Shown one piece after another: positions 11,203 through 59,366 of a stretch of DNA of 64,000 nucleotides. The notes beneath the pieces were generated by a model. That model was not told where the DNA came from, searched no databases, and was given only the letters and a program-made list of their open reading frames with translations. A program made the position numbers and the translations under genes. Position 1 is the stretch's first letter. Each line of letters opens with the position of its first letter. This DNA is from Escherichia phage vb_EcoM_bov11CS3, in sequence record MT884009.2. One strand, 5' to 3'.

Positions 11203-11467
11203 TTTTTGTACCTCCTCTTCAATTGTTACCTATCCTATAGCATAGGCCCACCAGGTTTGCAAGCCTTCATTCTCTCCTACCTGGTCAGTTAGGCCCTGCC
11301 AGGCTGGCCCCGCCAGGTTGCAGCGGTCAGCGCATCAGGTTAGAAATTTTTTTTTGAAAAGTGTTGACAGCGGCCCCGCCAGGTGGCAAAATATACCTAT
11401 CGAAAGGACGGCAGGCACCGGTGACGGGGGAGACAACCACCGGGGATGGGCGCTGCATGAAATGAGA

Positions 11468-11484
11468 ACGATTATCATTATCGT
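11468..11484. promoter_or_regulatory. Fur-box-like palindromic operator (imperfect)
   Basis: acgattatcattatcgt resembles the GATAATGATAATCATTATC consensus. Confidence 0.35.
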
Positions 11485-11601
11485 CTAAAAATTTATGCAA
11501 AAACTTCTTGCTTTCTTTGTCCTGTGTGTTACTATAATAACAAGCCGGGGCAGTAGGGGCCGGGAGACAATCACCGGGCCTGCCCGTTATTCTGCAAACG
11601 A

Positions 11602-11616
11602 GAATGATTATCATTC
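11602..11616. promoter_or_regulatory. Fur-box-like perfect palindrome GAATGAT-T-ATCATTC
   Basis: Perfect 7-1-7 inverted repeat; 12 of 13 match to the Fur-box core AATGATAATCATT. Confidence 0.4.
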
Positions 11617-11732
11617 AAAATTCTAAATGAGAACTCCTCGCATTTAATAAATTTAATTAGCACGCTAATTACCCTCCGTAACAATTTCCTATAAAATAGT
11701 ATCCACTAAAATATTCCCATATAGAAATTTTA

Positions 11733-11910
11733 AAAATCCATTTCTGAAAACGAAAAATCGATTTCGTCCCCAAAAATTTCAGGTCGAGAGCCGGAACGAT
11801 TTCCAGAAAATCCGATTCAGAAAACGAAAAACAGATCGAGTACTGAGAAATTTATCGAGAAAAATTTTCAGAAAATTCAATCTTTGAAACGAAAAACAGA
11901 TCGAGTACTT
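11733..11910. repeat. Three degenerate 38-bp direct repeats (iteron-like)
   Basis: Copies at about 11733, 11808 and 11873 share gaaaacgaaaaacagatcgagtact. Confidence 0.6.
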
Positions 11911-12219
11911 GGAAAGCTGCGCCACAACTTCAAGGTAGTGGTCGGATTATTACTATAAAAGGTCAAGGGTAAGTGGGGGAAGTTCTAGTAGAAGGGTGTG
12001 AGCATGTGCGGGAAATCTGTAATGGTGGTCTGGAATATGGTGCAGACGATAGGATGAGTGGTTCATCTCGTCGTGCCTGCTCTGAAAAATCCATTTTAGT
12101 TTTCGATCCATTTTCTGATTTTCTAAGGATTTTAAAATATCCTGGTAGGTAAAATATCAAAAGGAGGAAATCCATTTTAGAAATCCTCCTGATCTCTGGC
12201 AACCTGATAACTTAAAATA

Positions 12220-12552
12220 TCAGGCTCCCAGTGTGTTCTTTCCTTTATACAACCGTAAGGGTATAGTTTTTGTAACAGTCCATCTCCCCAGCCCTTCCCA
12301 GTTCCAGTTGTAGGCATGGTACCCGGTTACGCATGCACTGCTGGAGTGATCATAGGCATAAGAGAACGCTATACGCACCAAATGAAACCAGTCTTTCCAC
12401 GGTTGTGGTCCGTAAGCTTTTCTCCAACACCGACACAAGCTAAATGTCTCAAGAATAGGCAGGATAACAAATCCATACACCGCCACCAGAATAGCCAACG
12501 CAATGATTGTCAGGAATACATACCCTGCAGTTGAAACGATGATCTCTGTCAT
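12220..12552 (-). CDS. membrane protein (110 aa)
   Basis: Hydrophobic N-terminal segment; ATG start. Confidence 0.5.
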   Translation of the reverse strand: MTEIIVSTAGYVFLTIIALAILVAVYGFVILPILETFSLCRCWRKAYGPQPWKDWFHLVRIAFSYAYDHSSSACVTGYHAYNWNWEGLGRWTVTKTIPLRLYKGKNTLGA

Positions 12553-12746
12553 TTGTCGTCCCCTTTCTTACGGATATAGATGTGAGAGCCTGCCTGTATA
12601 TAAATTTCTCGACCATCTTCTGCAAAGATATGAAATACACGATCACCTTCATACTCGATACGTGATATCTTCATAATGGTCTTTCCACCTGGGATGCGGA
12701 TCTCATCCCCCACAGCGATGTTCCATGCAGATTTAAGCTTAAACAT
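12549..12746 (-). CDS. hypothetical protein (about 65 aa; track start is GTG)
   Basis: ATG with SD aaggaggg. Confidence 0.45.
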   Translation of the reverse strand: MFKLKSAWNIAVGDEIRIPGGKTIMKISRIEYEGDRVFHIFAEDGREIYIQAGSHIYIRKKGDDK

Positions 12747-12984
12747 CTGCACCCTCCTTTGGGAGCTCTAACTCTGGCATAGCCATATACGCCACAACAG
12801 GGTTGTAATCAAAGTAGAAATGACCGTTAATTATCCCAGTTTTGTGCACATGGTCACCAGATCCTGCAAGAACAATCTCGCAAGCTCCGAAATCAACCTT
12901 GCCATTCTCATCTGCCATGGCTACAATATACTTTCCTAGAGGCATGTTTTCAACGCCGTCTACAAATGTCCACCCTTTGTTCAT
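12739..12984 (-). CDS. hypothetical protein (81 aa)
   Basis: ATG start; track ORF. Confidence 0.5.
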   Translation of the reverse strand: MNKGWTFVDGVENMPLGKYIVAMADENGKVDFGACEIVLAGSGDHVHKTGIINGHFYFDYNPVVAYMAMPELELPKEGADV

Positions 12985-13004
12985 ACTTTATCTCCTGCAC
13001 TTTC

Positions 13005-13337
13005 TTAAGGTAACCAGTAAACAATTTCGCCTTTCAGTTCCATGTCGTTACCGACATAGATTTTCCAGCCATCCATTTTAGCCACTGCAGGAGTGAAGTC
13101 CGTAGAACCACTAACCTCTTTCCAAGTCCCGTAGTCAGGTTGCCAGATATAGAATCCACCTTCCTTGTCCCATGCTCCATATACCACATCAAGAAGGTTG
13201 CCCATTGCAACAATAGTAGGCCGTGGGAATAATACATCTACAGATGCGCCACAATTTCGGGTAGATTTTAAATTACAATCCCAAAAGATGTCTGCCAGTG
13301 TGGCGGCAATAGCTTTACGTCTTTCTAATGTTACCAT
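13005..13337 (-). CDS. hypothetical protein (110 aa)
   Basis: ATG start; track ORF. Confidence 0.5.
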   Translation of the reverse strand: MVTLERRKAIAATLADIFWDCNLKSTRNCGASVDVLFPRPTIVAMGNLLDVVYGAWDKEGGFYIWQPDYGTWKEVSGSTDFTPAVAKMDGWKIYVGNDMELKGEIVYWLP

Positions 13338-13344
13338 ATCATAC

Positions 13345-13536
13345 TCACTTGTTGTTAATAAGTTCTAAAACTTTCTGTCTTACTTTGTCAAGGTCTGTGG
13401 ATTCAAAAACTGTACGGTATCCCCAACTTTGCCCATAGGAGTGACTGCAATCCCCGTAGCACCATTGCTCAATTTGATAGTATTCAAGGAACGGGTGCTG
13501 TCTAACTATGATACCATCCCGGTTAAAAATTACCAT
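13345..13536 (-). CDS. hypothetical protein (63 aa)
   Basis: ATG start; promoter 13568-13595. Confidence 0.45.
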   Translation of the reverse strand: MVIFNRDGIIVRQHPFLEYYQIEQWCYGDCSHSYGQSWGYRTVFESTDLDKVRQKVLELINNK

Positions 13537-13567
13537 AATACATCGCTCTCTGTTAGTTTATGCGTAT

Positions 13568-13595
13568 ATTATACACTGCAGTTTTCAGATGTCAA
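13568..13595 (-). promoter_or_regulatory. sigma70-like promoter (TTGACA-16-TATAAT)
   Basis: Consensus hexamers read from reverse complement. Confidence 0.55.
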
Positions 13596-13599
13596 CCTC

Positions 13600-13851
13600 T
13601 TACAGATTGCTCCAGTACAATCGGCATTTACATTTTGGGCAATGAGGTTCTTTTATATAATAACCATCAGTCTTTGGAACACTTTTTGGTGCAGTTTTAA
13701 GATTGTACCTGGTAAAACATCGGAAGCAGGTTACCTCTCCCACCTGTTGATCGTTGATCCACTCACCAGAGTAAAGTTCTTTCTTGTTTCTCATAATTCT
13801 CTCCCAAATCATCTGCAATCTTATACCAAAATCTCCAGCCAGAAAGCACAC
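13600..13851 (-). CDS. small Cys-rich zinc-ribbon-like protein (start uncertain; track start is GTG)
   Basis: C-terminal CxxC...CxxC pairs; an internal ATG at 13794 is an alternative start. Confidence 0.45.
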   Translation of the reverse strand: MCFLAGDFGIRLQMIWERIMRNKKELYSGEWINDQQVGEVTCFRCFTRYNLKTAPKSVPKTDGYYIKEPHCPKCKCRLYWSNL

Positions 13852-14020
13852 GGGAACACTTTGAGGATTGAATCTTTACTTGGCTCGGAAGTTCTTTTTC
13901 CGTATGGTAGGTAGAAATACCCTCCTGCAGATTCGAATATAGCTCCTTCGGTTGTATCTACCACAGCAAGAATTAAGATTTTAGTCTCCACAGTGCTCTC
14001 CTCTCTTAGTTGTTGTGGAA

Positions 14021-14049
14021 ACTATATCACCTCAGAAGATGGTCGTCAA
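14021..14049 (-). promoter_or_regulatory. sigma70-like promoter (TTGACG-17-TATAGT)
   Basis: Hexamers read from reverse complement. Confidence 0.4.
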
Positions 14050-14543
14050 CACTTTTTGTACTCTACTACAACCACATCAATATCTGTGGTTGCAAGATTA
14101 ATTACATCTTCTACATGTTCCCACTTTAGACCTCCAATACCGCATCCGATTTTAGGAATGTAGAACGGCAATGACATACCTTTGAATACCTCGTTGACTC
14201 GCTCAAAACCTTTCATGATTGAGAAGTATTCAGCATTGGGCCCTGGGTAGAACTGGGTATACAGGTTGATTCCATATACGACCCTGGTCTTGGCAAAATG
14301 CTCCCAACAAGAAAACATACCCAGCTTGTCTAGATTACCATAAGCAGTCTCTTTGTCGGCTGCCAGTGCTTGAGGGAACTCACGGGCAATATCTTTCGCT
14401 ATACCTGCACCCATTGTGTGAAAGCAGTTACAACCGTGGATCATGTGGCCTGACCCTTTCTTGAAAATGGAGATTAGATCTCCCTTTACAGTATCAATAA
14501 TCACGGTATTCCAGCTCCTCTTCTGCAATTTCCAAAAACTCAT
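14046..14543 (-). CDS. macro-domain protein (ADP-ribose binding or hydrolase family), about 165 aa
   Basis: GDL...IHGCNCFHTMGAGIAKDIAREFP parallels the macro motif GDIT...VNAAN...GGGV..AI; second motif PKIGCGIGG; start adjusted to an internal ATG. Confidence 0.65.
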   Translation of the reverse strand: MSFWKLQKRSWNTVIIDTVKGDLISIFKKGSGHMIHGCNCFHTMGAGIAKDIAREFPQALAADKETAYGNLDKLGMFSCWEHFAKTRVVYGINLYTQFYPGPNAEYFSIMKGFERVNEVFKGMSLPFYIPKIGCGIGGLKWEHVEDVINLATTDIDVVVVEYKKC

Positions 14544-14919
14544 CCCAACCCTGTGGCATATTTGAGTTGCCGAAGTGGCTTTCGTAGTAGAGATTTTTAC
14601 CACTTGGAAGGTAGAAATCTGTTACCTCATAGAATCCACAATCGTCGCACTCACCTTCTTCAAACTTGGCCTCAACCTTAATACCGAGGAAGGTGAAAAG
14701 TTTATGAATATCTTCAGTTTCGAACTCCCAGTGAATGTTGTTTTCCGCATCGGTGTAGAACTGGATCAGCAGACCATTGTCCAGTTTACCAAAATACTCT
14801 GTGAAGTAACTTCCTTCCCAGAAATCTTTATGACAAATAATATCCATGCGTTTGCCCATAATAATGGTGTGAGCGTTTTGGGCATCGTCACGAATCAGTT
14901 TTGGCATTTCATAGATCAT
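14494..14919 (-). CDS. hypothetical acidic protein (141 aa)
   Basis: ATG start; track ORF. Confidence 0.55.
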   Translation of the reverse strand: MIYEMPKLIRDDAQNAHTIIMGKRMDIICHKDFWEGSYFTEYFGKLDNGLLIQFYTDAENNIHWEFETEDIHKLFTFLGIKVEAKFEEGECDDCGFYEVTDFYLPSGKNLYYESHFGNSNMPQGWDEFLEIAEEELEYRDY

Positions 14920-14987
14920 CTTAGTTCTCCGGGTTCAACAGGTGGTGGTGCTACAGGAAGATCATAAAACATGGCTATCACAGTCTC

Positions 14988-15185
14988 TTACACAGGAATT
15001 GCTTCAAATAGACCGTTATCTATACCGTCCTTCAGATAGAGATTATATTCTATGTCGGTATCTGTATAAAGGGCAGCATCCAGCATTCTATCTGTGAGTC
15101 CATCCATCGGGTGGAGAAACCACCACCCACGCCAGTCAAAGTAACAGCCTGGTGCATCTTCTCTTACACGGATTCGATAAATCAT
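14988..15185 (-). CDS. hypothetical protein (65 aa)
   Basis: ATG start; track ORF. Confidence 0.45.
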   Translation of the reverse strand: MIYRIRVREDAPGCYFDWRGWWFLHPMDGLTDRMLDAALYTDTDIEYNLYLKDGIDNGLFEAIPV

Positions 15186-15281
15186 GGGCAGTGGCCTCCT
15201 GTTAGTTATACATCCCAGTTTTCTTCGTTCATCACGTCCTCCCGTTCTATGAAGTTATAATTGCACACCTTTCAATCTGTG

Positions 15282-15698
15282 TCAACAGAAAACTTCAACA
15301 AATTCTTCCACAGTTTTAATGTCGTGGGAAAAAGGTTTACGGCTATAACGGGCAATAGCACTATCAACCACCGCCCGGTACTCCAAATCTTCAGAATATT
15401 TCATGAAGCATTGTAGCGTCTCTGGACAGATAGCTAAATAGCTCCACCACCCCTCTTCAGATTGGTAGTCGAATCCCATACTCTCCAACCATGAAGCATA
15501 TACGCCTGCACCCTCAAGCCAGTGAGTGTTTTCATCCAGGAACTTGTTAACAGACATGTGGGCTTCCAAGCATTTATCCAACTCTTTTCCGTTAACCAGC
15601 CACGCACTGACCGTGGCGCATCCAAGGTCTACAGATTGAGTTGACAGGTTGTATTGGTCATAGTTCTCAGGCTTAACAATGATATCTTCTAATGTCAT
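15282..15698 (-). CDS. hypothetical protein (138 aa)
   Basis: ATG start; track ORF. Confidence 0.55.
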   Translation of the reverse strand: MTLEDIIVKPENYDQYNLSTQSVDLGCATVSAWLVNGKELDKCLEAHMSVNKFLDENTHWLEGAGVYASWLESMGFDYQSEEGWWSYLAICPETLQCFMKYSEDLEYRAVVDSAIARYSRKPFSHDIKTVEEFVEVFC

Positions 15699-15715
15699 TT
15701 TTCAGATCTCCTTAT

Positions 15716-15745
15716 ACAAAAATGCCCCACCCTTTCGGGCAGGGC
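15716..15745 (-). terminator. Rho-independent terminator with GAAA tetraloop (copy 1 of 2)
   Basis: Minus strand reads gccctgccc-GAAA-gggtggggc followed by a U-tract; identical hairpin at 26452-26478. Confidence 0.65.
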
Positions 15746-15760
15746 TATGTTAACTAGATG

Positions 15761-16339
15761 TTAGAAGTATTCATAGAGGTATCCATCGGGAGCTGGAATT
15801 TTTTCATGAATGTAGTAATCAACACATATCCCTGTTTCTCTTCGGCAAGAATTGTGGGATACCCATTCTTTAAGAACGTTACCATTCATGTCCAGCCTCC
15901 TTACATTTTTACATCGTCTACCGCTGGTGCTTCTATGCAACAGAATATCCTCCGTCTGCTTATCTTTATTTTCTCCCCAAGTCGTTAAACAGATATTATC
16001 AAAAGAGTACCCTTTGAAATCATCTATCCTGTCACAAGAAGGCTTTTTCCTTTTGTCGTATCCGCTGGCTACCCACTGATCATACAACTCTTTGTAACCG
16101 TTAAGGTATAGCCACTCCTTAAACTCTTTTTTGGTGTAAGTCGGAGGAGGGTGACCTCTTTGCTTGCTGTTGCACTTTTGAGCCTTGTACAACACACGTA
16201 TTACACCTTTTTCTGAAGAGTCTTTAGCAAATTGGTCAGCCTCCCTGCTGGCCTTCTTGCAACACTCTTTGCACGTTGATTTGTTACTGGTGTAGAAGTC
16301 GGGGGCCTCCTTGTCCTCTCCACAACGTTTGCATTTCAT
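15761..16339 (-). CDS. putative degenerate HNH-family (I-HmuI-like) endonuclease-like protein (192 aa)
   Basis: N-terminal CxxC...CxxC; core DRIDDFKGYSFDNICLTTWGEN resembles the HNH DN-L-x-x-T-x-x-EN core with the histidines replaced. Confidence 0.45.
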   Translation of the reverse strand: MKCKRCGEDKEAPDFYTSNKSTCKECCKKASREADQFAKDSSEKGVIRVLYKAQKCNSKQRGHPPPTYTKKEFKEWLYLNGYKELYDQWVASGYDKRKKPSCDRIDDFKGYSFDNICLTTWGENKDKQTEDILLHRSTSGRRCKNVRRLDMNGNVLKEWVSHNSCRRETGICVDYYIHEKIPAPDGYLYEYF

Positions 16340-16347
16340 AACTGACC

Positions 16348-17574
16348 TCAGAAAGGGATCGAGTCATCGAACTCATACTGTGCTGGATTCTGATCCATCG
16401 GGTCATCTTCCTCGTCATTTACAGGAGGAGCGTCTACAGTGTTTTGCTGTGGAGCTGCTTCCTGTTTGGCAGCTTGAGGTTCTTGATGGTCAGTGGACCC
16501 AGCACCGTTCTTGATCCAATCGTACAACGGCTCAGCCAGATTAGTCAAGACATCTTTTGCTTCTGCAGTAATTGCCGCTGCAAAATCATCAACTTTCGTT
16601 TTCTTGTCAATACGGCGACAAGCGTTCAACACCGCATTACCGACACTGGCACCTACTTCATCTTCAGTTCGGTTGGTGGCTTGAGCATACTCTTTCTTAA
16701 GCTCAATGGTGACTACGTGCAGTGTTTTAGCCACGCCCAGTGGGTCGTCTACCTTAAACCCGCGATCCAGGATGATCTGCAACGCATTGATGCTATGCCC
16801 CGTTTCCACACCGATAGGGTCGTAAGAGGATTTACGCTTGCCACCGGAGCCTTGAGTGCCGTTCTCTGCCTTAGGAGGATAGGCTTTGAAACCACTGATA
16901 ATGTTTCCGGTGTCTTTGTCAACAATGGCTGCAACACGACCACCTACCACCAGGTCTTTAAGCTGCTCATCAGTTACAACCATAGCACCTTCGCCAATCT
17001 TGTGGTCATTAACAGTAACCACGTTGCCAACAATCTGAGTCACATCGCCATAGATGCGTAAAACGTCCTGATTGGCATTCTGCTGAGGTTTCTGCTTCTG
17101 GCCTTGTGATTGTGCACCTTGTTGCTGTTTTTGCTGCTGAGTCGCTGCTGGAGCCTCTCCTGCACCCAGCTTAACCATCTTAGCCAGTGAGCCTTTGTAA
17201 TAGGTCTTACCGTTATGCTCGTTTGCCTTCAAAGGGATATTTACGATCCATCCTGGCGTTACGGTTTCCCACTTGTCATCAATCTTAACAGAGACAGAGT
17301 CTTGATGACCCGGTTTAAGCAGTTTATCACCCATGCTGATCCAGACTTCTTCACCACCTTGAAGCAGGTTATCAGAGGAATCCAGTTCAGAAATCAGTAA
17401 AGAGATGGTGTGGCTGGATTCAATTTTCTTACCTTGCCACACAGTGGTTTTAATACCTGTTGTAGGATCAGCACCTTTGATAGGCTTGATGCTGACACGT
17501 TTAATCATGCCGTGAGCCAGTAAAACAGTTTCACGCGGATTCATCGGGTTAGCGAATTGTTGGATAACGCTCAT
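16348..17574 (-). CDS. SSB-like single-stranded DNA-binding protein (408 aa)
   Basis: Acidic C-terminal tip ...YEFDDSIPF like the SSB DDDIPF tail; Gln/Gly-rich linker. Confidence 0.5.
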   Translation of the reverse strand: MSVIQQFANPMNPRETVLLAHGMIKRVSIKPIKGADPTTGIKTTVWQGKKIESSHTISLLISELDSSDNLLQGGEEVWISMGDKLLKPGHQDSVSVKIDDKWETVTPGWIVNIPLKANEHNGKTYYKGSLAKMVKLGAGEAPAATQQQKQQQGAQSQGQKQKPQQNANQDVLRIYGDVTQIVGNVVTVNDHKIGEGAMVVTDEQLKDLVVGGRVAAIVDKDTGNIISGFKAYPPKAENGTQGSGGKRKSSYDPIGVETGHSINALQIILDRGFKVDDPLGVAKTLHVVTIELKKEYAQATNRTEDEVGASVGNAVLNACRRIDKKTKVDDFAAAITAEAKDVLTNLAEPLYDWIKNGAGSTDHQEPQAAKQEAAPQQNTVDAPPVNDEEDDPMDQNPAQYEFDDSIPF

Positions 17575-20764: not shown

Positions 20765-23542
20765 TTAGTGACAATCACCCCAATTACGACCACACAGGTA
20801 TTCACCTGTGATCTGGAACGGGACGCCCATCATTTTAGAAGCTTGCCAGAAGCAATGCACCACCATTTCACCCACAGGGCTCCAGATAAGTTCAAGCTTT
20901 CCGTCATCGTTCAGGATAGGATCGTACACCGTGTTTCCGTCTCTGTCAACCACTTCGTTTCCGTCCTCATCCTTGCGTGCCTTTTTGTACTTATGACCGT
21001 CGAACACATGAAGTTTGGCCTCCTGCTCTGCCTTAAATGCTTCCAGTTCTTCGATTGTGTCGAAGGTGTACACAGTCTTATACTTCGGTGTGTCAGGGAC
21101 TTGAAGCTGATATTCGTCATGGTAATAGATAATACGACGAACACCTTCATCGTACCACCCACGCTTCACCATTTGATGGTGCATGAGTATCCCAACTAAG
21201 TCACACAACGATGCGCCGCCATTTTGTTGGTATGCATTAAGTAAAGAGTGTTTAGATCGGGTCCAGATAGCATGACCATCAAAAGAGTAGATAAACTTCT
21301 TACCCGTTGCTTCCCAGAACTTCTCCAGATCTTCTTTACGCCCCTTAAGACCAGGGTTGGCATCCCAGAGTGCATCGATTACCCTTTGTCCCAACTCTGG
21401 AGAGATGTCCAGCATATCTGCAACTTTATCTTTTTGTGCCCCATACATAACCCCATACGTGATAGGTTTACCGTCGTTACGAGACACCTCTCTACCTGCT
21501 ACTTTTGTATATGCCTCAGCATTGTTTTGGTGTGCGTCCCCGTTACTTACAACATCGTAATACAGGCCGTTGTCGAACTCAAAGGCACCCCAAGCCCCGA
21601 TAAGCTGCTCTAAGTTGGACCCGTCAATACCGATCTCAAAGTATCCTGGAGGAACACCCCACAGACTACGCATCTCTTTACCCATAACCACTTTAGGAGA
21701 TGGTTTAGGCATGTTTGCACAAATACTGTGTTTCTGTCGGGAAGTGTTTGTTAATCCAGAACTTTTAGCAGGAAGCTTATGGTCAATCTTCAAACGTGGG
21801 TGATTAAGAAGACCAGTATCAACCTTATCCTCCTTGATTGGATCAAGGACCGATCTGCGGTTTCGCAATGATAACCACAAGACGATATCTTTAGCCATCT
21901 CTCCGTTCAATTTTTCAAGATTCGGGCATAGGTGTCCAAACGTATCTTTCAGTTGCGGAGAAGTAATAAGTGCCCTAGCTTTTCTACGTATTTTCCCGAA
22001 TACTTCCTTTTTAATCCTTTCGGAGTTAGGAAAGCTTCGGAACTTGTGCACGGTTGTCTGGAACTTAGCATCAGTTTTGTTCCAGAAGTTGATAATTAGG
22101 TCACAATACTCTGACTCTAAAAGCTCGTCCATATATGCATACACTCGTGCATCAACATCTGCATCAGGTAGAGCTTTCTTCTTGCTGTCTTTAGTTACAT
22201 CCTTAGTTCTCCACATTGTCGGAAGCCAACCAGCACTGATCAGGTATCGCTTAATATCGTCCTGATTGCTGATTTTCATAGGTATCTTGCAGTCAGGCAT
22301 TCGCTTCTGCTGTAGATCACTTATTGCCTGATCCATTAGCTCTTTAGGTAAAGGTTGTGGTGTGGAGGTGCCCTTGATATAGCCCCTCAAGAAATCCGCC
22401 ATCTTATCAGGGTCTTTACAGCCCATCTCTTCACACCATTTTATCCCCATCTTACTGACATCTCCTGTGGAGGTAAATGCTCGCTTAGGAGGAGCTTTGA
22501 ATTCTAAAGCACTCATGTCCACAGGGTAGCCAAGCTTGTCTTTTAACCATTTCCAACCATTATTGGAGATTGTCCCATCCTGGTTAAACGGCTTTTCAGG
22601 GAACTTAGGCCGCTGAGACATTGATAACTCTTTTAAAGGAAGTTGTGGTTCAACACGATCAGCGATCTCTTTCATCCACGCATCGCAGCGGTCACGTAAA
22701 GCAATAGCCCCATCTATGTCGAAATACACACCCTGTCGAGCCTGCAGCTCCATCAGGAAATGCTGCAGCATGCCTCGGCGTAATGCATTCTTCCAGGTAA
22801 TCTTCTTGAATCCTTTAGGCTTCTCTTTGGCAGGGTCATACATAAAGTTCTGCATGTCAGATTTGCCGTAGAATACACCTTTTGATTCCGCTACCAACTC
22901 TTTCCAGAGCAACTCCTGGATGATAACGTCCTCGAACACACGATCCACATATTTCCACAGCGGAAGATCGCGCCAGTCATCAATTTGAACTTTCTGGTTA
23001 CCAAGGGCGTAGCCCCATGCCATAAGGCCGTGAGGACCAACAGGTTGCATTTTCTTAGTAACCGGGTTGAATACAGCGTCCGGACAACCTTTTGGTAAAG
23101 GGCGATCAGGCCACAAGATTCGGCTCATAGCCAACGTATCAAACAGGTTAACCTGGTGGTCGTTGATAGTCCCCATGCATTTAGGATCACGGAACATATC
23201 AAAATGAATACCGGATAATCTTTCCATTAGCATAAAGTCATAACTGTAGCAGTTATGGCAGTTCAAAGCTGTTGGTGACCAGTCAGAATTGCCTGTAAGC
23301 CAACCTTCCAACTCCGAAAAATCTGCTATGCGAACTTCAAAATCTTTATAAAGAGTTTTCTTTGCCAGAATGAAGTTCTTAGCCTTTTCTATATCCTCCT
23401 CGGAGTAGTGTGTGCGGTCATTTAGAGGAAGGAACAGCATAAAACGGTTCTTATTCAGCTCTTTAAACAGACCGCAGTGATAATAAAGATCTGGGTCTTC
23501 CAGCAAACCGGATGACTCAAAATCGAAAGACCACATACTCAT
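20765..23542 (-). CDS. DNA polymerase, family A (Pol I-like), 925 aa
   Basis: Motif B-like RNDGKPITYGVMYGAQ and motif C-like YYHDEYQ; ATG with SD aaggaga. Confidence 0.9.
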   Translation of the reverse strand: MSMWSFDFESSGLLEDPDLYYHCGLFKELNKNRFMLFLPLNDRTHYSEEDIEKAKNFILAKKTLYKDFEVRIADFSELEGWLTGNSDWSPTALNCHNCYSYDFMLMERLSGIHFDMFRDPKCMGTINDHQVNLFDTLAMSRILWPDRPLPKGCPDAVFNPVTKKMQPVGPHGLMAWGYALGNQKVQIDDWRDLPLWKYVDRVFEDVIIQELLWKELVAESKGVFYGKSDMQNFMYDPAKEKPKGFKKITWKNALRRGMLQHFLMELQARQGVYFDIDGAIALRDRCDAWMKEIADRVEPQLPLKELSMSQRPKFPEKPFNQDGTISNNGWKWLKDKLGYPVDMSALEFKAPPKRAFTSTGDVSKMGIKWCEEMGCKDPDKMADFLRGYIKGTSTPQPLPKELMDQAISDLQQKRMPDCKIPMKISNQDDIKRYLISAGWLPTMWRTKDVTKDSKKKALPDADVDARVYAYMDELLESEYCDLIINFWNKTDAKFQTTVHKFRSFPNSERIKKEVFGKIRRKARALITSPQLKDTFGHLCPNLEKLNGEMAKDIVLWLSLRNRRSVLDPIKEDKVDTGLLNHPRLKIDHKLPAKSSGLTNTSRQKHSICANMPKPSPKVVMGKEMRSLWGVPPGYFEIGIDGSNLEQLIGAWGAFEFDNGLYYDVVSNGDAHQNNAEAYTKVAGREVSRNDGKPITYGVMYGAQKDKVADMLDISPELGQRVIDALWDANPGLKGRKEDLEKFWEATGKKFIYSFDGHAIWTRSKHSLLNAYQQNGGASLCDLVGILMHHQMVKRGWYDEGVRRIIYYHDEYQLQVPDTPKYKTVYTFDTIEELEAFKAEQEAKLHVFDGHKYKKARKDEDGNEVVDRDGNTVYDPILNDDGKLELIWSPVGEMVVHCFWQASKMMGVPFQITGEYLCGRNWGDCH

Positions 23543-23600: not shown

Positions 23601-25679
23601 TTAAAAAGGCGTTTCATCATCCTCAAAACCAGGGACCGGGTCAGAGGATGGATCATCGTACTGGAGGTCTTCCTGCGTGTCAACAGGCTTAACAGTAGGA
23701 GTTACAACCTTATCAGCCACAACCTTGCCCATAGGTGTTTCTACAACTGCATGCTCCTGATCCTCAAACATAGCCTGAGGTCTCCAAACAACCTCCCCAC
23801 CTTCTCCGTCTGTAAACATTTGCATTTCTTTGTCCCAGTACCAATTACTGGCATCATGGAACTTACCTGTGTGCGGGTCCATAACCAAAGTGTCAGCAAT
23901 ACCTAAAGTTTTTGCTGGACGGTTTTTAAGACCTACCAGACGGACACGTCCACGAGAACGATCCACCATTTCTTCGGCCTCGACACCTATGACTACCCAA
24001 CTCAACTGTTCAAGCCCCGCCGATCCTCGCAAATTCTCTTTTCGCACAGGATACCAGAAAGGTAACGGGTTACCATCCTTGTCCTTAGGAGGCACAATCT
24101 CTGTACGTTTGAGGTGAGCGATCACCAAGATAAACACGTTAAACTGCTTACAAAACGCAGCCAGCTGAGTCATAGCCATGTCCAGTTCTTTTCGCTCATC
24201 CTTAACATTAAGCCCTGAAATTACCATGGACAGGTGATCCAGCACAATATAACGGCAATGGTACAGGCAAACCATTTGCTTAAGCTTGGTAATCAACTCG
24301 TCCACCGGAATAGATCCGAAATGTTTGAACACTTTGATTTTTCCAGCTTTTGCCCATGATTGGTGAATCTCTGCGTGTTCTTGATCAGTTAAAAACTGGC
24401 TAGGATCTTCAACAAACTCTTTAACATCAAACCCTAACTGGTTTGCATACAAGGAGTTAATTGCTTCCTCTGGGTCCTCCTCAAGATGGATCATACATAG
24501 ACGATCATCCTCTTCATAGTCATCAGCCTTCGGGCATGTCGGGTCCATTAGGTATCTTGCAATACAATGTTCCAGTTTTTTAGCTACAGTTGTTTTACCG
24601 CCCCCTGATGGCCCTGTAAGCATTACGAGTGTCCCTTTGTGCAAGCCTTTTAGCATTTTTTGCAGTTTTGGGAACTCTGCGCTGATATCTACCCCGTTGG
24701 AAGTCTTTTTCCGCAAAGACTCGATAGAGAAGTCTTCTAAGTCCGACACAGCATCAGGCACATATTTAACAGGATGCCGGAACATGTTGACAATATCTTC
24801 CAGCTTTTTAGCCTTCAGCATGTCTCGGATATCTTTTACACCGTCAGGGTCGTTTACTTCACCAGGGTATTCTACGTGGTAAACGTTATCAGCCATCAAA
24901 AATGCTGCGATATTGTGCGTGGCCTCAACACCTTTAATGACGTGTTTTTGCTTCTCTACCTCGTTAGCTGCATCGTTATCCATTGCCAGCACAACTGTTC
25001 CATAGCTACGGATAAACTTCTCATTGTTTGCAAAAGTATCTACTGCGTTTGCACATCCACAGTTAATTCCAACAAAAGGTAGGCAGGGTTTTCCTGCCAG
25101 ATCACCACCGTTGATAACTGCGTCGATCCCGTCCTGGACCTCTTTAGCCCACTGCTTCACCTTTGCCGGGGCTTTAGCGTTGGTGAGAATCCCTTTTACT
25201 TGTATCTGATATGCAGCCTGCCATGCTGCAATAACATCACCTTCTCCCTCACAAACGTTAATCTGCTTACGGTTGTTGGAAGATGCACACAGCTTTTGAC
25301 CAAACATCTGGGAGTTGGCCTTTACGATGCCAACAACGGAGAAATGGCCCCTTTGCTCTTTAGGAATAGTCCAGTCACGCTTTTTGAAACCAGACAGATT
25401 TCCGTAGCGGTCGTAATATGGGAAATATGTTGCAGTGACTGTCACACCGTCTTCTTGGGACAATGCTGATCGCACACCAAAATATTGTGCAGCCATCAGA
25501 CCGATATTTTGTTGTGGGACAGGGACAATTTTAGTATTTTCTAAAACAGTCTCTACAGTTTCAACTTCTTTTTCATCACGATAGTCTCGTTTCACACTTC
25601 CCCCACTTTTATACTTAGTTGCTTTCGGGTTTGGCTCACCGAAACGGTTGTATGCAGATGCCATAAATTTACTTCCCAT
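23601..25679 (-). CDS. Primase-helicase (T7 gp4-like; TOPRIM plus DnaB-type helicase), 692 aa
   Basis: TOPRIM-like VCEGEGD and AMDNDAAN; Walker A LTGPSGGGKTT; ATG with SD aaggag. Confidence 0.9.
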   Translation of the reverse strand: MGSKFMASAYNRFGEPNPKATKYKSGGSVKRDYRDEKEVETVETVLENTKIVPVPQQNIGLMAAQYFGVRSALSQEDGVTVTATYFPYYDRYGNLSGFKKRDWTIPKEQRGHFSVVGIVKANSQMFGQKLCASSNNRKQINVCEGEGDVIAAWQAAYQIQVKGILTNAKAPAKVKQWAKEVQDGIDAVINGGDLAGKPCLPFVGINCGCANAVDTFANNEKFIRSYGTVVLAMDNDAANEVEKQKHVIKGVEATHNIAAFLMADNVYHVEYPGEVNDPDGVKDIRDMLKAKKLEDIVNMFRHPVKYVPDAVSDLEDFSIESLRKKTSNGVDISAEFPKLQKMLKGLHKGTLVMLTGPSGGGKTTVAKKLEHCIARYLMDPTCPKADDYEEDDRLCMIHLEEDPEEAINSLYANQLGFDVKEFVEDPSQFLTDQEHAEIHQSWAKAGKIKVFKHFGSIPVDELITKLKQMVCLYHCRYIVLDHLSMVISGLNVKDERKELDMAMTQLAAFCKQFNVFILVIAHLKRTEIVPPKDKDGNPLPFWYPVRKENLRGSAGLEQLSWVVIGVEAEEMVDRSRGRVRLVGLKNRPAKTLGIADTLVMDPHTGKFHDASNWYWDKEMQMFTDGEGGEVVWRPQAMFEDQEHAVVETPMGKVVADKVVTPTVKPVDTQEDLQYDDPSSDPVPGFEDDETPF

Positions 25680-27375: not shown

Positions 27376-27719
27376 CAGAAACCTCCCACTTCTTCGGCAA
27401 ATGCAGCTGCTGTCGTCGCTGCATCAAGATAGGACTCTAGTTCACGGGCTGCACGTTTGTAAATTGAGTGGCGCATATCGTTTGGCAGTTTGTGGAAGTC
27501 CACCTCTTCACCGTTGTGGTAAACATGCACATCAGTGATCTGTCTAAATCCATAATAGTCAACATCAGAATCACGACACTCCGGGTCTGGCAACTGGACA
27601 ACTGCCTGAGCTTCCACAGTGAACATATCGTCAAGTTCGAAATCGATTTCAAAAGTGTATGGTTTATAACGTTTCATCATTTGATTGTACTCTTTATTGA
27701 TCAGACTTATCTTTCGCAA
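27375..27719 (-). CDS. hypothetical protein (114 aa by track; TTG start, alternative ATG at 27680)
   Basis: Track ORF; start uncertain. Confidence 0.45.
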   Translation of the reverse strand: MRKISLINKEYNQMMKRYKPYTFEIDFELDDMFTVEAQAVVQLPDPECRDSDVDYYGFRQITDVHVYHNGEEVDFHKLPNDMRHSIYKRAARELESYLDAATTAAAFAEEVGGF

Positions 27720-29019
27720 CTAAGGCCGGGGCAAGTTTGTAATAACGGAAGCCACCACCACCTTGCCAGTTTACAGACTTAGAAATACCACCTTGATCTT
27801 CGCCATCGATCACTTTTTCCAAGCGCGGAATAATATGGGTATGACAATGATCACCTAGCTCGATTGAGATCCAGCGTCTTTTCATCTTATGAGCTACAGC
27901 AGCAGTAGTTCCCGAACCACCGAATGAATCCAATACCAAATCGCCTTCTCGCGTACACATTTCGAAAATCCGCTTCAAAAGCGCTTCTGGTTTTTTCCCA
28001 TTTTTGAAACTAACGCCGCCTTCATTTGCTATTCCATTCCAACTAATGTCTGTCCAAACATCAGTTATTAGTTCCGCAGGTTGCATCTCACCGTCAATTT
28101 CCAAAAGCCTATTGGAGTAAAAGACCATTTGCCTACCATTTGCGATATAAAATCCTTCAACATCCTCATTTGGATGTACATAAACCTTATCCCTATCTTT
28201 CTTTGACTTCTCGATAGTTTCTTTTCTCTTTATTTTAGCACCACCACCAATTGCAACAGATTGAAATACACGTTCTGCATTATCAATTGCGAATTGTGCT
28301 AATTCATCATCGAATGTGTCAGGCAGTTTTTTCTTGGCTTCTTTTGCATCCTTATAGCCATTGGCCTTTGCAAACGCATCGGCAATACCGCACCACGTCC
28401 AATTTTTATAATGGTCATCCGGGTTTAATAGGTATTTGTTATATCCTGTATCGTACCCTTTAGGTATATAGATTTTGTTAAGCGGTTTCTGGGTGCGATC
28501 TTTTGCATATACAAGCAAAAAGTTTGCTGTGGAGAAAACTGTGGCTCCTGTTGCCTTAAATCCTGAAGGGGAATTTGTGGTCATCGATATGGTATTTAAC
28601 TGATTTGCACGACCAAAAATCTCGTCCATCAAAACTTTTAAATACGCCATTTCGCAATCATCTAAGTGAACGAATATTACCCCATCATCACTTAGAAGAT
28701 TACGAATTATTTCTAACCTATCCCTCATTAAGCCCAGCCAAATGGAATGCTCCAGGCTATCATCGTAGTGCTCAAAAGCCCTCCCGGTATTGAATGGCGG
28801 GTCTATGTAAACACACTTCACTTTGCCTGCATACTCTTGCTCTAGCGCCTTCAATGCTAATAAGTTATCTCCAAAAATCAGTTTATTATCAAAAATATCG
28901 TTTTCTGTCACTTTCTGGCTGCGGTAAGACTTGCTAGAATCTTCTAATAAAATGTGCGGCTCTAACTTTTTGCGCTCGTTTTTACCTATCCAGGTAAGTT
29001 CTAATTTGGTTTTGCTCAT
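27694..29019 (-). CDS. DNA methyltransferase, beta-class N6-adenine/N4-cytosine type (Mod-like), 441 aa
   Basis: Motif IV VYIDPPFNTG precedes motif I DSFGGSGTT; ATG with SD taaggagag. Confidence 0.85.
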   Translation of the reverse strand: MSKTKLELTWIGKNERKKLEPHILLEDSSKSYRSQKVTENDIFDNKLIFGDNLLALKALEQEYAGKVKCVYIDPPFNTGRAFEHYDDSLEHSIWLGLMRDRLEIIRNLLSDDGVIFVHLDDCEMAYLKVLMDEIFGRANQLNTISMTTNSPSGFKATGATVFSTANFLLVYAKDRTQKPLNKIYIPKGYDTGYNKYLLNPDDHYKNWTWCGIADAFAKANGYKDAKEAKKKLPDTFDDELAQFAIDNAERVFQSVAIGGGAKIKRKETIEKSKKDRDKVYVHPNEDVEGFYIANGRQMVFYSNRLLEIDGEMQPAELITDVWTDISWNGIANEGGVSFKNGKKPEALLKRIFEMCTREGDLVLDSFGGSGTTAAVAHKMKRRWISIELGDHCHTHIIPRLEKVIDGEDQGGISKSVNWQGGGGFRYYKLAPALVAKDKSDQ

Positions 29020-58680: not shown

Positions 58681-59366
58681 TAACCCTCCTGTCTAGTTGC
58701 GTTTACTGTAATACTTTCACAATAAATGGTTGTGGTGTCCCAATCAGGTCTTACGTCAGGAACATACAGCAAAGTAGCCAGCCCACCAACTCCGAATTGG
58801 TTTTCTTCCCACACTGATCCGAAGCCAAGAGCTGTAGAGTCCCCTTCAAAACCAAAAGCTTGCCCTTGCGATTCTGTAAGACGCAAATGACAAGGTAATG
58901 GTAGCATATCTAAGATCTGATCGATAGACTGCAATATGTCAAAGCAAGTTTTTCTAATATTTATGTCAAACCTGAAGTTGTCTCCTTTCCACGTATCGAA
59001 ATTGTCTCTTCCGAACAATTGTCGCAAGGTGGAGATGACATCTTCGCGAGTCCCGCCCCTTGATGCTGCGGCCTGCTGAATAATTAGTGTGGCACGAAAA
59101 TCAGCATCTGAAAGTCCATTCCTAAGAATACCAAGTTGATTACCAACTTCGTCAAGGTATCTTCCGCTGGCATTGTTAAGCAATCTTCCTTCAGCCAAAC
59201 CTACCAGCATCTTATCAACATCCTCCAACCTTTTAAGGTATACGGTTAAGAATGTGACTAAATTAACCTTCTCAGCCAGAAAATCTCCAGGTAGGTAGTC
59301 AAGACCTCCCTGAACAAAATCTGGCAGAGTGTGGATGTGGTTAACATCCGACTTAATCTCTGCCAT
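58680..59366 (-). CDS. Putative baseplate-associated protein (228 aa)
   Basis: Directly downstream of the baseplate J-like gene with overlapping stop/start. Confidence 0.45.
   Translation of the reverse strand: MAEIKSDVNHIHTLPDFVQGGLDYLPGDFLAEKVNLVTFLTVYLKRLEDVDKMLVGLAEGRLLNNASGRYLDEVGNQLGILRNGLSDADFRATLIIQQAAASRGGTREDVISTLRQLFGRDNFDTWKGDNFRFDINIRKTCFDILQSIDQILDMLPLPCHLRLTESQGQAFGFEGDSTALGFGSVWEENQFGVGGLATLLYVPDVRPDWDTTTIYCESITVNATRQEG

Follow-up and report, generated by a model that had tools for sequence, protein, structure and literature searches.

A stand-alone macrodomain protein of an rV5-like Vequintavirus, homologous to T4 Tk.4/AdfM and predicted to act against DarT2 on DNA

The gene at positions 14046-14504 (minus strand) of the window, that is, of the first 64 kb of an rV5-like Vequintavirus genome, does encode a macrodomain; it had been annotated before and belongs to a known and very common kind. 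It has a GTG start and, stop codon included, encodes a 152 amino acid homologue of T4 Tk.4/AdfM (GenBank QNR53128.1). By analogy with its relatives, this protein is likely to be a stand-alone, catalytically competent ADP-ribosyl hydrolase of the ALC1-like class (TARG1/DarG/SCO6735/Poa1p), the Vequintavirus counterpart of Tk.4/AdfM, which would counter DarT2 on DNA. On the basis of homology, an orphan, antitoxin-like DNA de-ADP-ribosylase directed against DarT2 is its most likely function.

An earlier note on this DNA had recognized in the ORF a phage macrodomain with both halves of the signature, and had suggested a Pfam search and a structure comparison with DarG. Its identification was borne out. 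The match to Macro (PF01661) was above the gathering threshold (26.5 bits versus 22, E 6.5e-6) and extended over two stretches, and the two halves of the signature are present as the H23-A36 and P117-G125 motifs. PHROG 335 was the best PHROG match (E 6e-60), as it also is for T4 Tk.4 and PhiKZ gp104. The best matches in NCBIfam and PADLOC were to the macrodomain part of DarG, and all sequence matches in the PDB were macrodomains, of the TARG1/DarG/Poa1p/SCO6735 group. An AlphaFold2 model of the 152 residues (mean pLDDT 96.5, pTM 0.91) was compared with the PDB using Foldseek. Human TARG1/OARD1 (4J5R/4J5S) came first (E 1.7e-10, TM 0.79, rmsd 2.4 Å), then Poa1p, DarG and SCO6735; the model superposed on DarG (5M31, 5M3E, 5M3I) with TM values of 0.74-0.78. 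All 17 of the top 17 matches were natural macrodomains, with a probability of 1.00 and the three-layer alpha/beta macro fold. The source GenBank record already labels the gene Macro/Poa1p-like, and no second macrodomain gene was found in the 135.9-kb genome.

The ORF ends with a TGA at 14046-14048 (minus strand) and is open upstream as far as a GTG at 14603. Started at this GTG, the ORF would share 110 nt with the upstream gene (14494-14919, minus strand), in full agreement with the earlier note. The earlier note was right in discarding this long start, but the internal ATG that it preferred (14541-14543, minus strand, 14543 marking the first in-frame ATG of the long ORF) is not the start either: the codon is read as Leu in rV5, and in Bas58 an in-frame stop separates it from a conserved GTG, 18 nt downstream of that stop. 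Comparison with rV5, Bas58, Brandy and T4 excludes both candidates. By the same comparison, the true start is the GTG at 14502-14504 (minus strand), and the coding sequence is 14046-14504, not 14046-14543. This GTG is kept in rV5 and Bas58, and the ATG of T4 and of the Krischvirus phage Brandy aligns with it. All 18 of 18 aligned homologues begin with MII or MIV at this position or at most approximately three residues away. The GenBank record already has this start. Met21, the only ATG downstream of 14504, was rejected, as starting there would remove the first beta-strand. A Shine-Dalgarno-like GAGGAG, read off the sequence, is present 10 nt upstream of the GTG (14515-14520, minus strand), and its context, GAGGAGCTGG-ATACC, is common to rV5 and Bas58. 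The GTG overlaps the last codons and stop of the upstream gene, in GTGATTATTGA, and this 11-nt overlap suggests translational coupling.

The upstream gene encodes 141 amino acids (phrog_8157, function unknown) without a Pfam match; its ortholog in Bas54 is non-essential. In a consensus scan, a sigma-70-like promoter candidate was found at 15257-15285 (minus strand; TTGACA, 17-nt spacer, AATTAT, extended TG, 10 matches out of 12), upstream of 14988-15185, 14494-14919 and the macrodomain gene. A second candidate, also with 10/12 matches, lies at 15070-15042 (minus strand). On the same strand, perfect 12/12 promoters were found by the scan at 19299-19271 and 13595-13568, the latter coinciding with P205 as annotated in rV5, which indicates that the region uses host-type promoters. 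Judged by these sigma-70-like promoters, the location of the gene in an early region is plausible. Further upstream, ahead of the gene block, a strong hairpin resembling an intrinsic terminator was detected by consensus scan (15724-15745, minus strand; stem of 9 pairs including 7 G-C pairs, then a T-run), and it probably delimits the transcription unit holding the macrodomain gene. The neighbours are small phage ORFs, and no darT is found beside the gene. Of ten ORFs flanking the gene, Pfam recognized just one domain, a small zinc-binding one at 13600-13794, and in PHROGs these ORFs matched just "unknown function" families and one "endonuclease VII" family. No functional link to neighbouring genes was thus found by Pfam or PHROG. 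Scans of the 64-kb window for tRNAs and Rfam families were both empty.

The protein has the motifs of the ADP-ribose pocket (N26, G32-A-G34, G120-x-G122-x-x-G125), with a conservation of at least 90% among 121 homologues; the pocket geometry itself is inferred from alignments. The N-terminal half, H23-G-C-N26-C-F-H-T-M-G-A-G-I-A36 (14397-14438, minus strand), contains the conserved macrodomain Asn26 (14427-14429, minus strand) and the first Gly-rich loop. Within it, H23, G24, C25, N26, C27, F28, M31, G32, A33, G34, I35 and A36 are each conserved in at least 90% of the 121 homologues, and it aligns with H-V-C-N27 of SCO6735 and with H23-S-C-N of Poa1p. The C-terminal half, P117-K-I-G120-C-G122-I-G-G125 (14130-14156, minus strand), corresponds to the diphosphate-binding loop and aligns with IGCGLD of TARG1 and IGCGLAGG of SCO6735; in the same set, conservation is at least 90% for P117, I119, G120, G122 and G125. 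Between the two halves lies Y82-T83-Q84 (14253-14261, minus strand), which does not vary among 19 aligned sequences and reaches at least 90% conservation in the 121 homologues. Where DarG (K80) and TARG1 (K84) have their catalytic Lys, and SCO6735 its essential Gln85, the phage protein has Gln84. This placement was obtained from HMMER alignments to M. tuberculosis DarG (FPTK), TARG1 (ITKK), SCO6735 and BT1257 (IGQH). The motifs K60-L-G and Y82-T are invariant in the phage family and peculiar to it.

The best sequence and profile matches in the PDB were SCO6735 of Streptomyces coelicolor (5E3B) and BT1257 of Bacteroides (2FG1/2AFC). Like the phage protein, these are stand-alone macrodomains with an H-x-C-N motif, a Gln instead of the catalytic Lys and no Asp partner; they differ in being cellular proteins, with only approximately 23-25% identity. 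By profile-to-sequence alignment, N26 and Q84 correspond to N27 and Q85 of SCO6735, the numbering offset having been checked via K34, G87 and K89. SCO6735 cleaves the thymidine-linked ADP-ribose made by DarT on DNA, and removes ADP-ribose from proteins too; its Q85A mutant is dead and N27S nearly so (PMC9411070). The lysines K89 and K94 of SCO6735, part of its extended, basic mobile loop for DNA binding, have no clear equivalents in the phage protein: against this mobile loop, the loop following Q84 (FYPGPNAEY) is gapped, the alignment is unreliable there, and no equivalent lysines are seen.

DarG (NCBIfam NF048014) is the best curated-family match, has the same fold and conserved Asn, and the same predicted substrate. 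However, the catalytic Lys80 of the T. aquaticus and M. tuberculosis proteins is replaced by Gln84 (FPTK versus LYTQ), and the phage protein, with 152 amino acids versus approximately 340, is devoid of the C-terminal DarT-binding domain. Its score with the NF048014 model was 46 bits versus a cut-off of 250, and only positions 2-144 of 338 were matched. DarG proper is therefore excluded, as the catalytic Lys, the C-terminal domain and a darT neighbour are all missing. TARG1 was likewise excluded as a model for the chemistry. Although a member of the same ALC1-like class, it is a eukaryotic enzyme acting on proteins and OAADPr, and its catalytic dyad Lys84/Asp125 is absent from the phage protein, in which Gln84 and Gly124 occupy these positions.

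A protein of this kind might also inhibit by binding DarT2 or its product, and not by catalysis, since the catalytically dead Q85A mutant of SCO6735 still inhibits DarT in vitro (PMC9411070). The missing DarT-binding domain, with a DarG match confined to the N-terminal part of the model, argues against such a role, and the family hardly varies at the Asn, the Gln and the two Gly loops, which points to selection on catalysis. We give this possibility hardly any weight.

Experimental support for an action against DarT2 is available from other phages. Over its full length (residues 1-150 versus 1-152), the protein is 40% identical to T4 Tk.4 (67% positives, E 1e-44). In T4, tk.4 was the sole hit of a transposon screen on DarTG2, a clean knockout made the phage DarTG2-sensitive, and the gene was named adfM; this genetic evidence was reported in a 2025 preprint (bioRxiv 10.1101/2025.11.20.689424). 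Tk.4/AdfM probably confers resistance to DarTG2 by stripping ADP-ribose from DNA. The proposal of the earlier note, that the gene might reverse a host defence based on ADP-ribosylation, thus gains support by analogy with this 40%-identical protein, whose deletion leads to DarTG2 sensitivity. The two proteins are both stand-alone macrodomains of approximately 152-155 amino acids belonging to PHROG 335, and have in common the HGCNCFHTMG, KLG, NLYTQF and IG-GIG motifs, including the Gln at the position of the DarG catalytic Lys. Both are non-essential on K-12, the Vequintavirus copy as judged from its Bas54 ortholog. They differ in their surroundings: the T4 gene is part of the vs-tk cluster, whereas the Vequintavirus copy lies among ORFs of unknown function, with a GTG start and predicted coupling to an unrelated upstream ORF. 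The Vequintavirus copy is closer to those of Krischvirus (RB49-like) phages than to T4 Tk.4, with 68% identity to the Brandy gene found in the tk.4 position. An identity of 40% to Tk.4 is no guarantee of the same substrate.

A second phage macrodomain, gp104 (AdfM) of PhiKZ and the chimalliviruses, was shown in vitro to free oligonucleotides of thymidine-linked ADP-ribose, and it protects its phage against DarTG2 (PMC13309987). It is also an orphan with the same best PHROG, and the same job, removal of the thymidine-linked ADP-ribose made by DarT2, is predicted for the Vequintavirus protein. The two are however only approximately 21% identical (E 5e-4). PhiKZ AdfM is of the DarG type, with an FPTK78 motif and 137.8 bits with the NCBIfam DarG model versus 46 for the Vequintavirus protein; it is a late protein that is imported into the phage nucleus (PMC13309987). 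The MAFFT and BLASTP alignments with PhiKZ gp104 are unreliable at the catalytic position, and therefore the HMMER alignments with DarG, TARG1 and SCO6735 were used instead, together with the residue numbers of the paper. T4 AdfM and the Vequintavirus protein have an Asn/Gln site of the SCO6735 type, and PhiKZ AdfM an Asn/Lys site of the DarG type.

The database labels "Poa1p-like", "A1pp" and "phosphatase", found in T4, rV5 and the source record, derive from yeast Poa1p, an ADP-ribose-1''-phosphate phosphatase (PDB 6LFQ-6LFU). A phosphatase of this kind could end an NAD-dependent RNA repair: the phage sirtuin would act on cleaved tRNA and take off a 2'-phosphate in the form of ADPr>P, whose cyclic phosphate would be opened by cREC; dephosphorylation of ADPr-1''P by the macrodomain would be the last step. 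The profile match to Poa1p (55 bits) was about as strong as that to DarG, the fold is similar (TM approximately 0.71), and the H23-x-C-N-C motif is common to both proteins. Crystal structures of Poa1p H23A and S30A exist, according to PDB entry titles. Among the residues probed in Poa1p, H23 is kept and invariant in the 19-sequence alignment, S30 is replaced by T30, a variable position, and F152 by Gly, the last of these counting against a phosphatase; Poa1p also differs by its length, 180 amino acids with insertions. At 96.7-99.8 kb, the same genome encodes Metallophos, PNK-like kinase, Rnl1-type RNA ligase, cREC and SIR2 proteins, a cluster described for phage V5 and predicted to make ADPr>P (PMC9503650). 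The macrodomain gene is however located approximately 85 kb from this cluster, and the authors of that study saw no Macro gene linked to it (PMC9503650). The phyletic patterns differ as well: sirtuin homologues were present in 1,007 records, among the matches listed largely T5-like phages (approximately 110 kb) and Vequintavirinae, and macrodomain homologues in 2,733, the matches listed coming for the most part from T4-like phages, Felixounavirus and others. Linkage to the sirtuin RNA-repair cluster was downgraded on these two grounds, distance (85 kb) and phyletic pattern. To our knowledge, T4 has neither a sirtuin nor KptA, which also speaks against the phosphatase. Finally, the phenotype of the T4 tk.4 knockout is specific to DarTG2 (bioRxiv 10.1101/2025.11.20.689424). 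Altogether, a Poa1p-like function appears quite unlikely.

A broader or different ADP-ribose eraser would act on proteins or RNA modified by host transferases (e.g. RNA-targeting ARTs), or on O-acetyl-ADP-ribose produced by the phage Sir2. In its favour, the nearest structure, TARG1/OARD1, is that of a protein de-ADP-ribosylase and OAADPr deacetylase, SCO6735 works on both protein and DNA (PMC9411070), and Sir2 is encoded in the same genome. Many homologues are also named "O-acetyl-ADP-ribose deacetylase" by JGI, but this is an automatic COG label, and the TARG1 dyad is replaced, as described above. No homologue of T4 Alt, ModA or ModB was detected by tblastn against the complete 135,884-bp genome (best E 0.34), which argues that the macrodomain is not an eraser for phage ARTs of the T4 type. 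In T4, no condition other than DarTG2 has been reported to select for tk.4 (bioRxiv 10.1101/2025.11.20.689424). We consider this alternative unlikely. Nevertheless, the substrate range of a DNA-directed enzyme may be broader, by analogy with SCO6735, which also de-ADP-ribosylates proteins.

The earlier note had also envisaged the processing of an NAD-derived signal. The protein would then degrade or sequester an immune signal such as the cADPR isomers of Thoeris or His-ADPR. Binding of such signals by macrodomains has a precedent in ThsA of type II Thoeris, whose macrodomain binds His-ADPR, and soluble derivatives were predicted in a 2022 survey to be the main targets of the ADPr-processing domains of phages (PMC9503650). 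Nothing found here points to Thoeris: the protein has no homology to known anti-Thoeris proteins, and in PADLOC and NCBIfam it matches DarG only. Moreover, both characterised phage macrodomain counter-defence proteins target the DarTG2 pathway, one of them directly on DNA adducts. An action on immune signals is therefore very improbable.

Homologues were found in 2,733 of 50,697 phage records (approximately 5%), and approximately 40% of myoviruses were reported to encode a macrodomain (PMC9503650). The ortholog in the BASEL phage Bas54 (bas54_0092) is identical at 151 of 152 residues. On K-12, transposon insertions in this ortholog were obtained at 31 of 31 TA sites and the gene was scored non-essential, as expected for a counter-defence gene needed only under certain conditions. 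A literature search on DarTG2 and Vequintavirus found no test of a Vequintavirus against DarTG2. A cellular origin beside DarT was considered and not retained: the one bacterial homologue checked, a 40%-identical protein of Pelagimonas, stands alone among unrelated genes.

We propose the following scheme for the de-ADP-ribosylase. The gene would probably be cotranscribed with other small genes of the early or middle class, from promoters of the host type, and its translation would probably begin at the GTG at 14504, coupled to the upstream ORF. In infected E. coli carrying DarTG2, DarT2 would ADP-ribosylate thymidines of single-stranded phage DNA, and replication would be blocked. The pocket of the phage enzyme (Asn26 and the Gly-rich loops 31-36 and 119-125) would take up the ADP-ribose, and hydrolysis of the thymidine-ribose bond would release free ADP-ribose and restore the DNA, the enzyme behaving as an "orphan antitoxin". 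The chemistry is predicted to be SCO6735-like rather than DarG-like: Gln84, held by Asn26, would position the distal ribose for a water-mediated reaction, and neither a catalytic Lys, nor an Asp partner, nor a C-terminal DarT-binding domain would be involved. The biochemistry behind this model is that of PhiKZ AdfM, a Lys-type enzyme approximately 21% identical, and of the bacterial SCO6735. As regards a role confined to DNA, two observations point the other way: His23, a residue probed in Poa1p, is kept, and the sirtuin/cREC/RNA-ligase cluster could generate ADP-ribose-1''-phosphate.

More speculatively, the PHROG 335 macrodomains of the T4/rV5 type, with their invariant YTQ, could form a lysine-less, SCO6735-like anti-DarT lineage, separate from the DarG-derived PhiKZ AdfM and maybe acting on wider substrates: DNA and protein or RNA adducts and, in rV5-like phages, also ADP-ribose-1''-phosphate from the sirtuin/cREC pathway. 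We regard this as improbable as a whole; if it were true, one small enzyme would serve two counter-defence routes.

The finding is otherwise an ordinary one, on a gene already annotated; what is added here is the correction of the start codon and the difference in the active site. The AdfM papers cited here describe Tk.4 just as DarG-like, and in them the Gln/Lys difference passes without remark. On the reading of the protein as a counterpart of Tk.4/AdfM, rV5-like phages, which include O157 typing phages and phage-therapy candidates, are predicted to be intrinsically DarTG2-resistant, a prediction of modest practical value. Given Asn/Gln sites in T4 and Vequintavirus, and an Asn/Lys site in PhiKZ, the recruitment of anti-DarT2 macrodomains by phages seems to have occurred on at least two occasions.

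The macrodomain gene lies on the minus strand of the window, in a long open reading frame of 185 codons that runs from GTG 14603 to the TGA at 14046-14048 and, as the earlier note observed, shares 110 nt with its upstream neighbour, likewise on the minus strand (14494-14919). That note took an internal ATG for the probable start; the first in frame, at 14543, is its end coordinate. GenBank annotates a CDS at 14046-14504 (QNR53128.1, 'phage T4-like protein... with Macro domain, Poa1p_like family'), beginning with the GTG at 14502-14504, which has GAGGAG 10 nt upstream (14515-14520) and overlaps the stop of the upstream gene within GTGATTATTGA. Comparison with relatives spoke against the ATG: its position is a Leu codon in rV5, and in Bas58 (HeinrichReichert) only 18 nt of frame are open 5' of the conserved GTG. 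An ATG stands exactly at the GTG-aligned position in the T4-like phages Brandy (MIIDT) and T4 (MIVKY), and each of the 18 homologues in the alignment begins at the GTG 14504 position or no more than about 3 residues from it. Met21, the only downstream ATG, was rejected as a start, since a protein begun there would lack the GD motif and the first strand. Together, these comparisons indicate that the protein is 152 aa long and begins at GTG 14504.

That it is a macrodomain protein was confirmed, well past chance, by profile and structure searches. Its sole Pfam match is Macro (PF01661; 26.5 bits for a threshold of 22, E 6.5e-6, in two stretches), and PHROG 335 ('phosphatase') covers the whole protein (E 6e-60). 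The AlphaFold2 model, built on an alignment of 121 homologues, has a mean pLDDT of 96.5 and a pTM of 0.91. Its closest PDB match by Foldseek is TARG1 (E 1.7e-10, TM 0.79, rmsd 2.4 Å), followed among the best by yeast Poa1p, the T. aquaticus and M. tuberculosis DarG macrodomains, BT1257 and SCO6735, each protein with a probability of 1.00. The earlier note's call of a macrodomain is thus correct.

By megablast, positions 13000-16000 are 100% identical, at identical coordinates, to Escherichia phage vb_EcoM_bov22_2 (MT884010.2), an rV5-like Vequintavirus of species slur16 from cattle faeces; aligned with the opening 64,000 bases of that record, the window shows one mismatch only, at base 58747. 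The same 3-kb stretch is matched by 121 phage records, 112 of them over at least 80% of its length. Sixteen GenBank records titled 'Campylobacter phage' (host C. jejuni) also match it, and among the matches listed phage C2 (~140 kb) shows ~96% nucleotide identity; contamination or host mislabelling seems likely for these records.

The gene sits in an extended run of small minus-strand ORFs, downstream of the replication genes (DNA polymerase, 20765-23542; primase/helicase, 23601-25679). Two perfect (12/12) sigma-70 consensus promoters (TTGACA, 16 or 17 nt, TATAAT) are present on its strand, at 19299-19271 and 13595-13568, the latter coinciding with P205 annotated in rV5. A consensus scan gave two further candidates on that strand (10/12 positions, 15285-15257 and 15070-15042), and promoter-like sites between 12000 and 19500 number 25, versus 13.5 +/- 4.3 in shuffled controls, about a two-fold excess. 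Because of these promoters and candidates, early or middle transcription by host RNA polymerase is plausible. A sequence scan also found a strong terminator-like hairpin on the minus strand at 15745-15724. Scans of the whole 64-kb window returned no tRNA and no Rfam family, and the GenBank annotation leaves positions 1-1481 and 11204-12005 without a gene.

Flanking ORFs are devoid of Pfam domains, with the sole exception of a 64-aa protein (13600-13794, minus strand; Phage_zn_bind_2, PF23903, E 8e-23), whose rV5 homologue is annotated as similar to an RB49 protein. The minus-strand ORF at 15761-16339, variously labelled 'endonuclease VII', 'endonuclease' or 'putative homing endonuclease', matches phrog_1035 (endonuclease VII) and no Pfam family at E<=0.01; it measures 579 nt in the window and 624 nt in rV5 and Bas54, and is non-essential in Bas54. 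Among the replication genes, a 'type III restriction-modification system methylation subunit' (27694-29019, minus strand) is possibly a self-protective DNA methyltransferase. Bacterial SSB ends in the acidic tip DDDIPF. A similar C-terminus (...AQYEFDDSIPF) is found in a 408-aa protein without Pfam matches (16348-17574, minus strand; phrog_4477, function unknown), which has a Gln-rich low-complexity centre. It could be a phage SSB, or else imitate the host SSB tail so as to recruit replication or repair proteins of the host; HIDEN-SEQ classed the Bas54 ortholog, bas54_0087, as Essential, with insertions at 8 of 57 TA sites (bioRxiv 10.1101/2025.11.20.689424).

The macrodomain gene family is among the commonest accessory families of myoviruses. 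Homologues (E<=1e-5) occur in 2,733 of 50,697 phage records, from T4-like phages, Vequintavirus, Felixounavirus, Ackermannviridae-sized genomes and Pseudomonas, Vibrio and Acinetobacter phages, and phage-sized contigs predominate among the 377 homologue clusters of a large protein search. At the bacterial locus examined, in Pelagimonas, the gene stands alone among unrelated neighbours. In rV5 the gene carries the annotation 'tk.4; phosphatase; similar to RB49 Tk.4', and the Bas54 copy, bas54_0092, is identical at 151 of 152 residues. T4 Tk.4 (NC_000866, 60922-61389) aligns from residue 1 to 150 with 40% identity and 67% positives (E 1e-44), whereas the copy of the Krischvirus Brandy, in the canonical regB-vs-tk.4 position, reaches 68%. 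Several genes nearby (12220-15698, minus strand) have rV5 annotations as 'similar to RB49 (Krischvirus)' proteins. These neighbours and the closeness to Brandy suggest that accessory early genes have been swapped between rV5-like and RB49-like phages.

A counter-defence role, raised in the earlier note, is supported in direction by T4. There, tk.4 is the single gene depleted by transposon sequencing on a DarTG2-expressing host, and its clean knockout makes T4 DarTG2-sensitive, hence the name adfM; with insertions at 45 of 46 TA sites in tk.4 and at 31 of 31 in bas54_0092, both genes are scored non-essential on K-12 (bioRxiv 10.1101/2025.11.20.689424). Independently, PhiKZ gp104, also called AdfM, was found to strip thymidine-linked ADP-ribose off oligonucleotides and to be needed for growth on DarTG2 hosts (Morgan et al., PMC13309987). 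T4 lacking both AdfA and AdfN is still DarTG2-resistant, and T5 is sensitive (PMC11825919). The gene of the window is thus an already annotated one with an experimentally characterised homologue, its own anti-DarTG2 function being predicted by homology. For the other proposal, involvement in Thoeris or in NAD-derived signalling of another kind, this analysis found no support.

The older 'phosphatase/Poa1p-like' label would make ADP-ribose-1''-phosphate the substrate. A possible source exists in bov22_2, outside the window: a cluster (MT884010.2, 96698-99823) of Metallophos (calcineurin-like phosphoesterase), PNK-like kinase, T4 Rnl1-type RNA ligase, cREC_REC and SIR2 genes. Iyer et al. (PMC9503650) described such a sirtuin-centred, NAD-dependent RNA-repair neighbourhood in phage V5, predicted to generate ADPr>P; however, by their account the cluster has no linked Macro gene, and here 85 kb separate the two. 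Moreover, of the 1,007 records with a sirtuin homologue, those listed are largely T5-like phages and Vequintavirinae, whereas macrodomain homologues come mainly from T4-like and other myoviruses. A search of the MT884010.2 genome detected no Alt/Mod-type gene, which makes it unlikely that the protein erases marks set by phage-encoded transferases of this type.

The active site can be compared with those of other macrodomains. In HMMER alignments, Y82-T83-Q84 falls opposite FPTK of M. tuberculosis DarG, ITKK of TARG1 and IGQH of SCO6735 and BT1257; Gly124 takes the place of TARG1 Asp125. Q84 and N26 correspond to Q85 and N27 of SCO6735 (numbering corrected for a 20-residue tag offset), an enzyme that cleaves thymidine-ADPr made on DNA by DarT, by a proposed water-mediated mechanism. 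Its Q85 is the structural equivalent of DarG K80 and TARG1 K84; Q85A abolishes activity and N27S nearly does (Hlousek-Kasun et al., PMC9411070). Across 121 sequences of the phage family, conservation of N26, Y82, T83 and Q84 is 90% or higher, and a smaller set of 19, T4 among them, shows no variation at these positions. In contrast, PhiKZ AdfM, only ~21% identical, has N23 and FPTK78, and scores 137.8 bits with the NCBIfam DarG model, versus 46.0 for the 152-aa protein and 30.3 for T4 Tk.4. From these alignments and scores we infer that phage 'AdfM' comprises two lineages, a DarG-like Lys type and a SCO6735-like Gln type, a division unstated in the cited papers, and that the gene of the window falls in the latter. 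The sole, slightly new point is that the predicted catalytic centre is of the SCO6735 type, not the DarG type.
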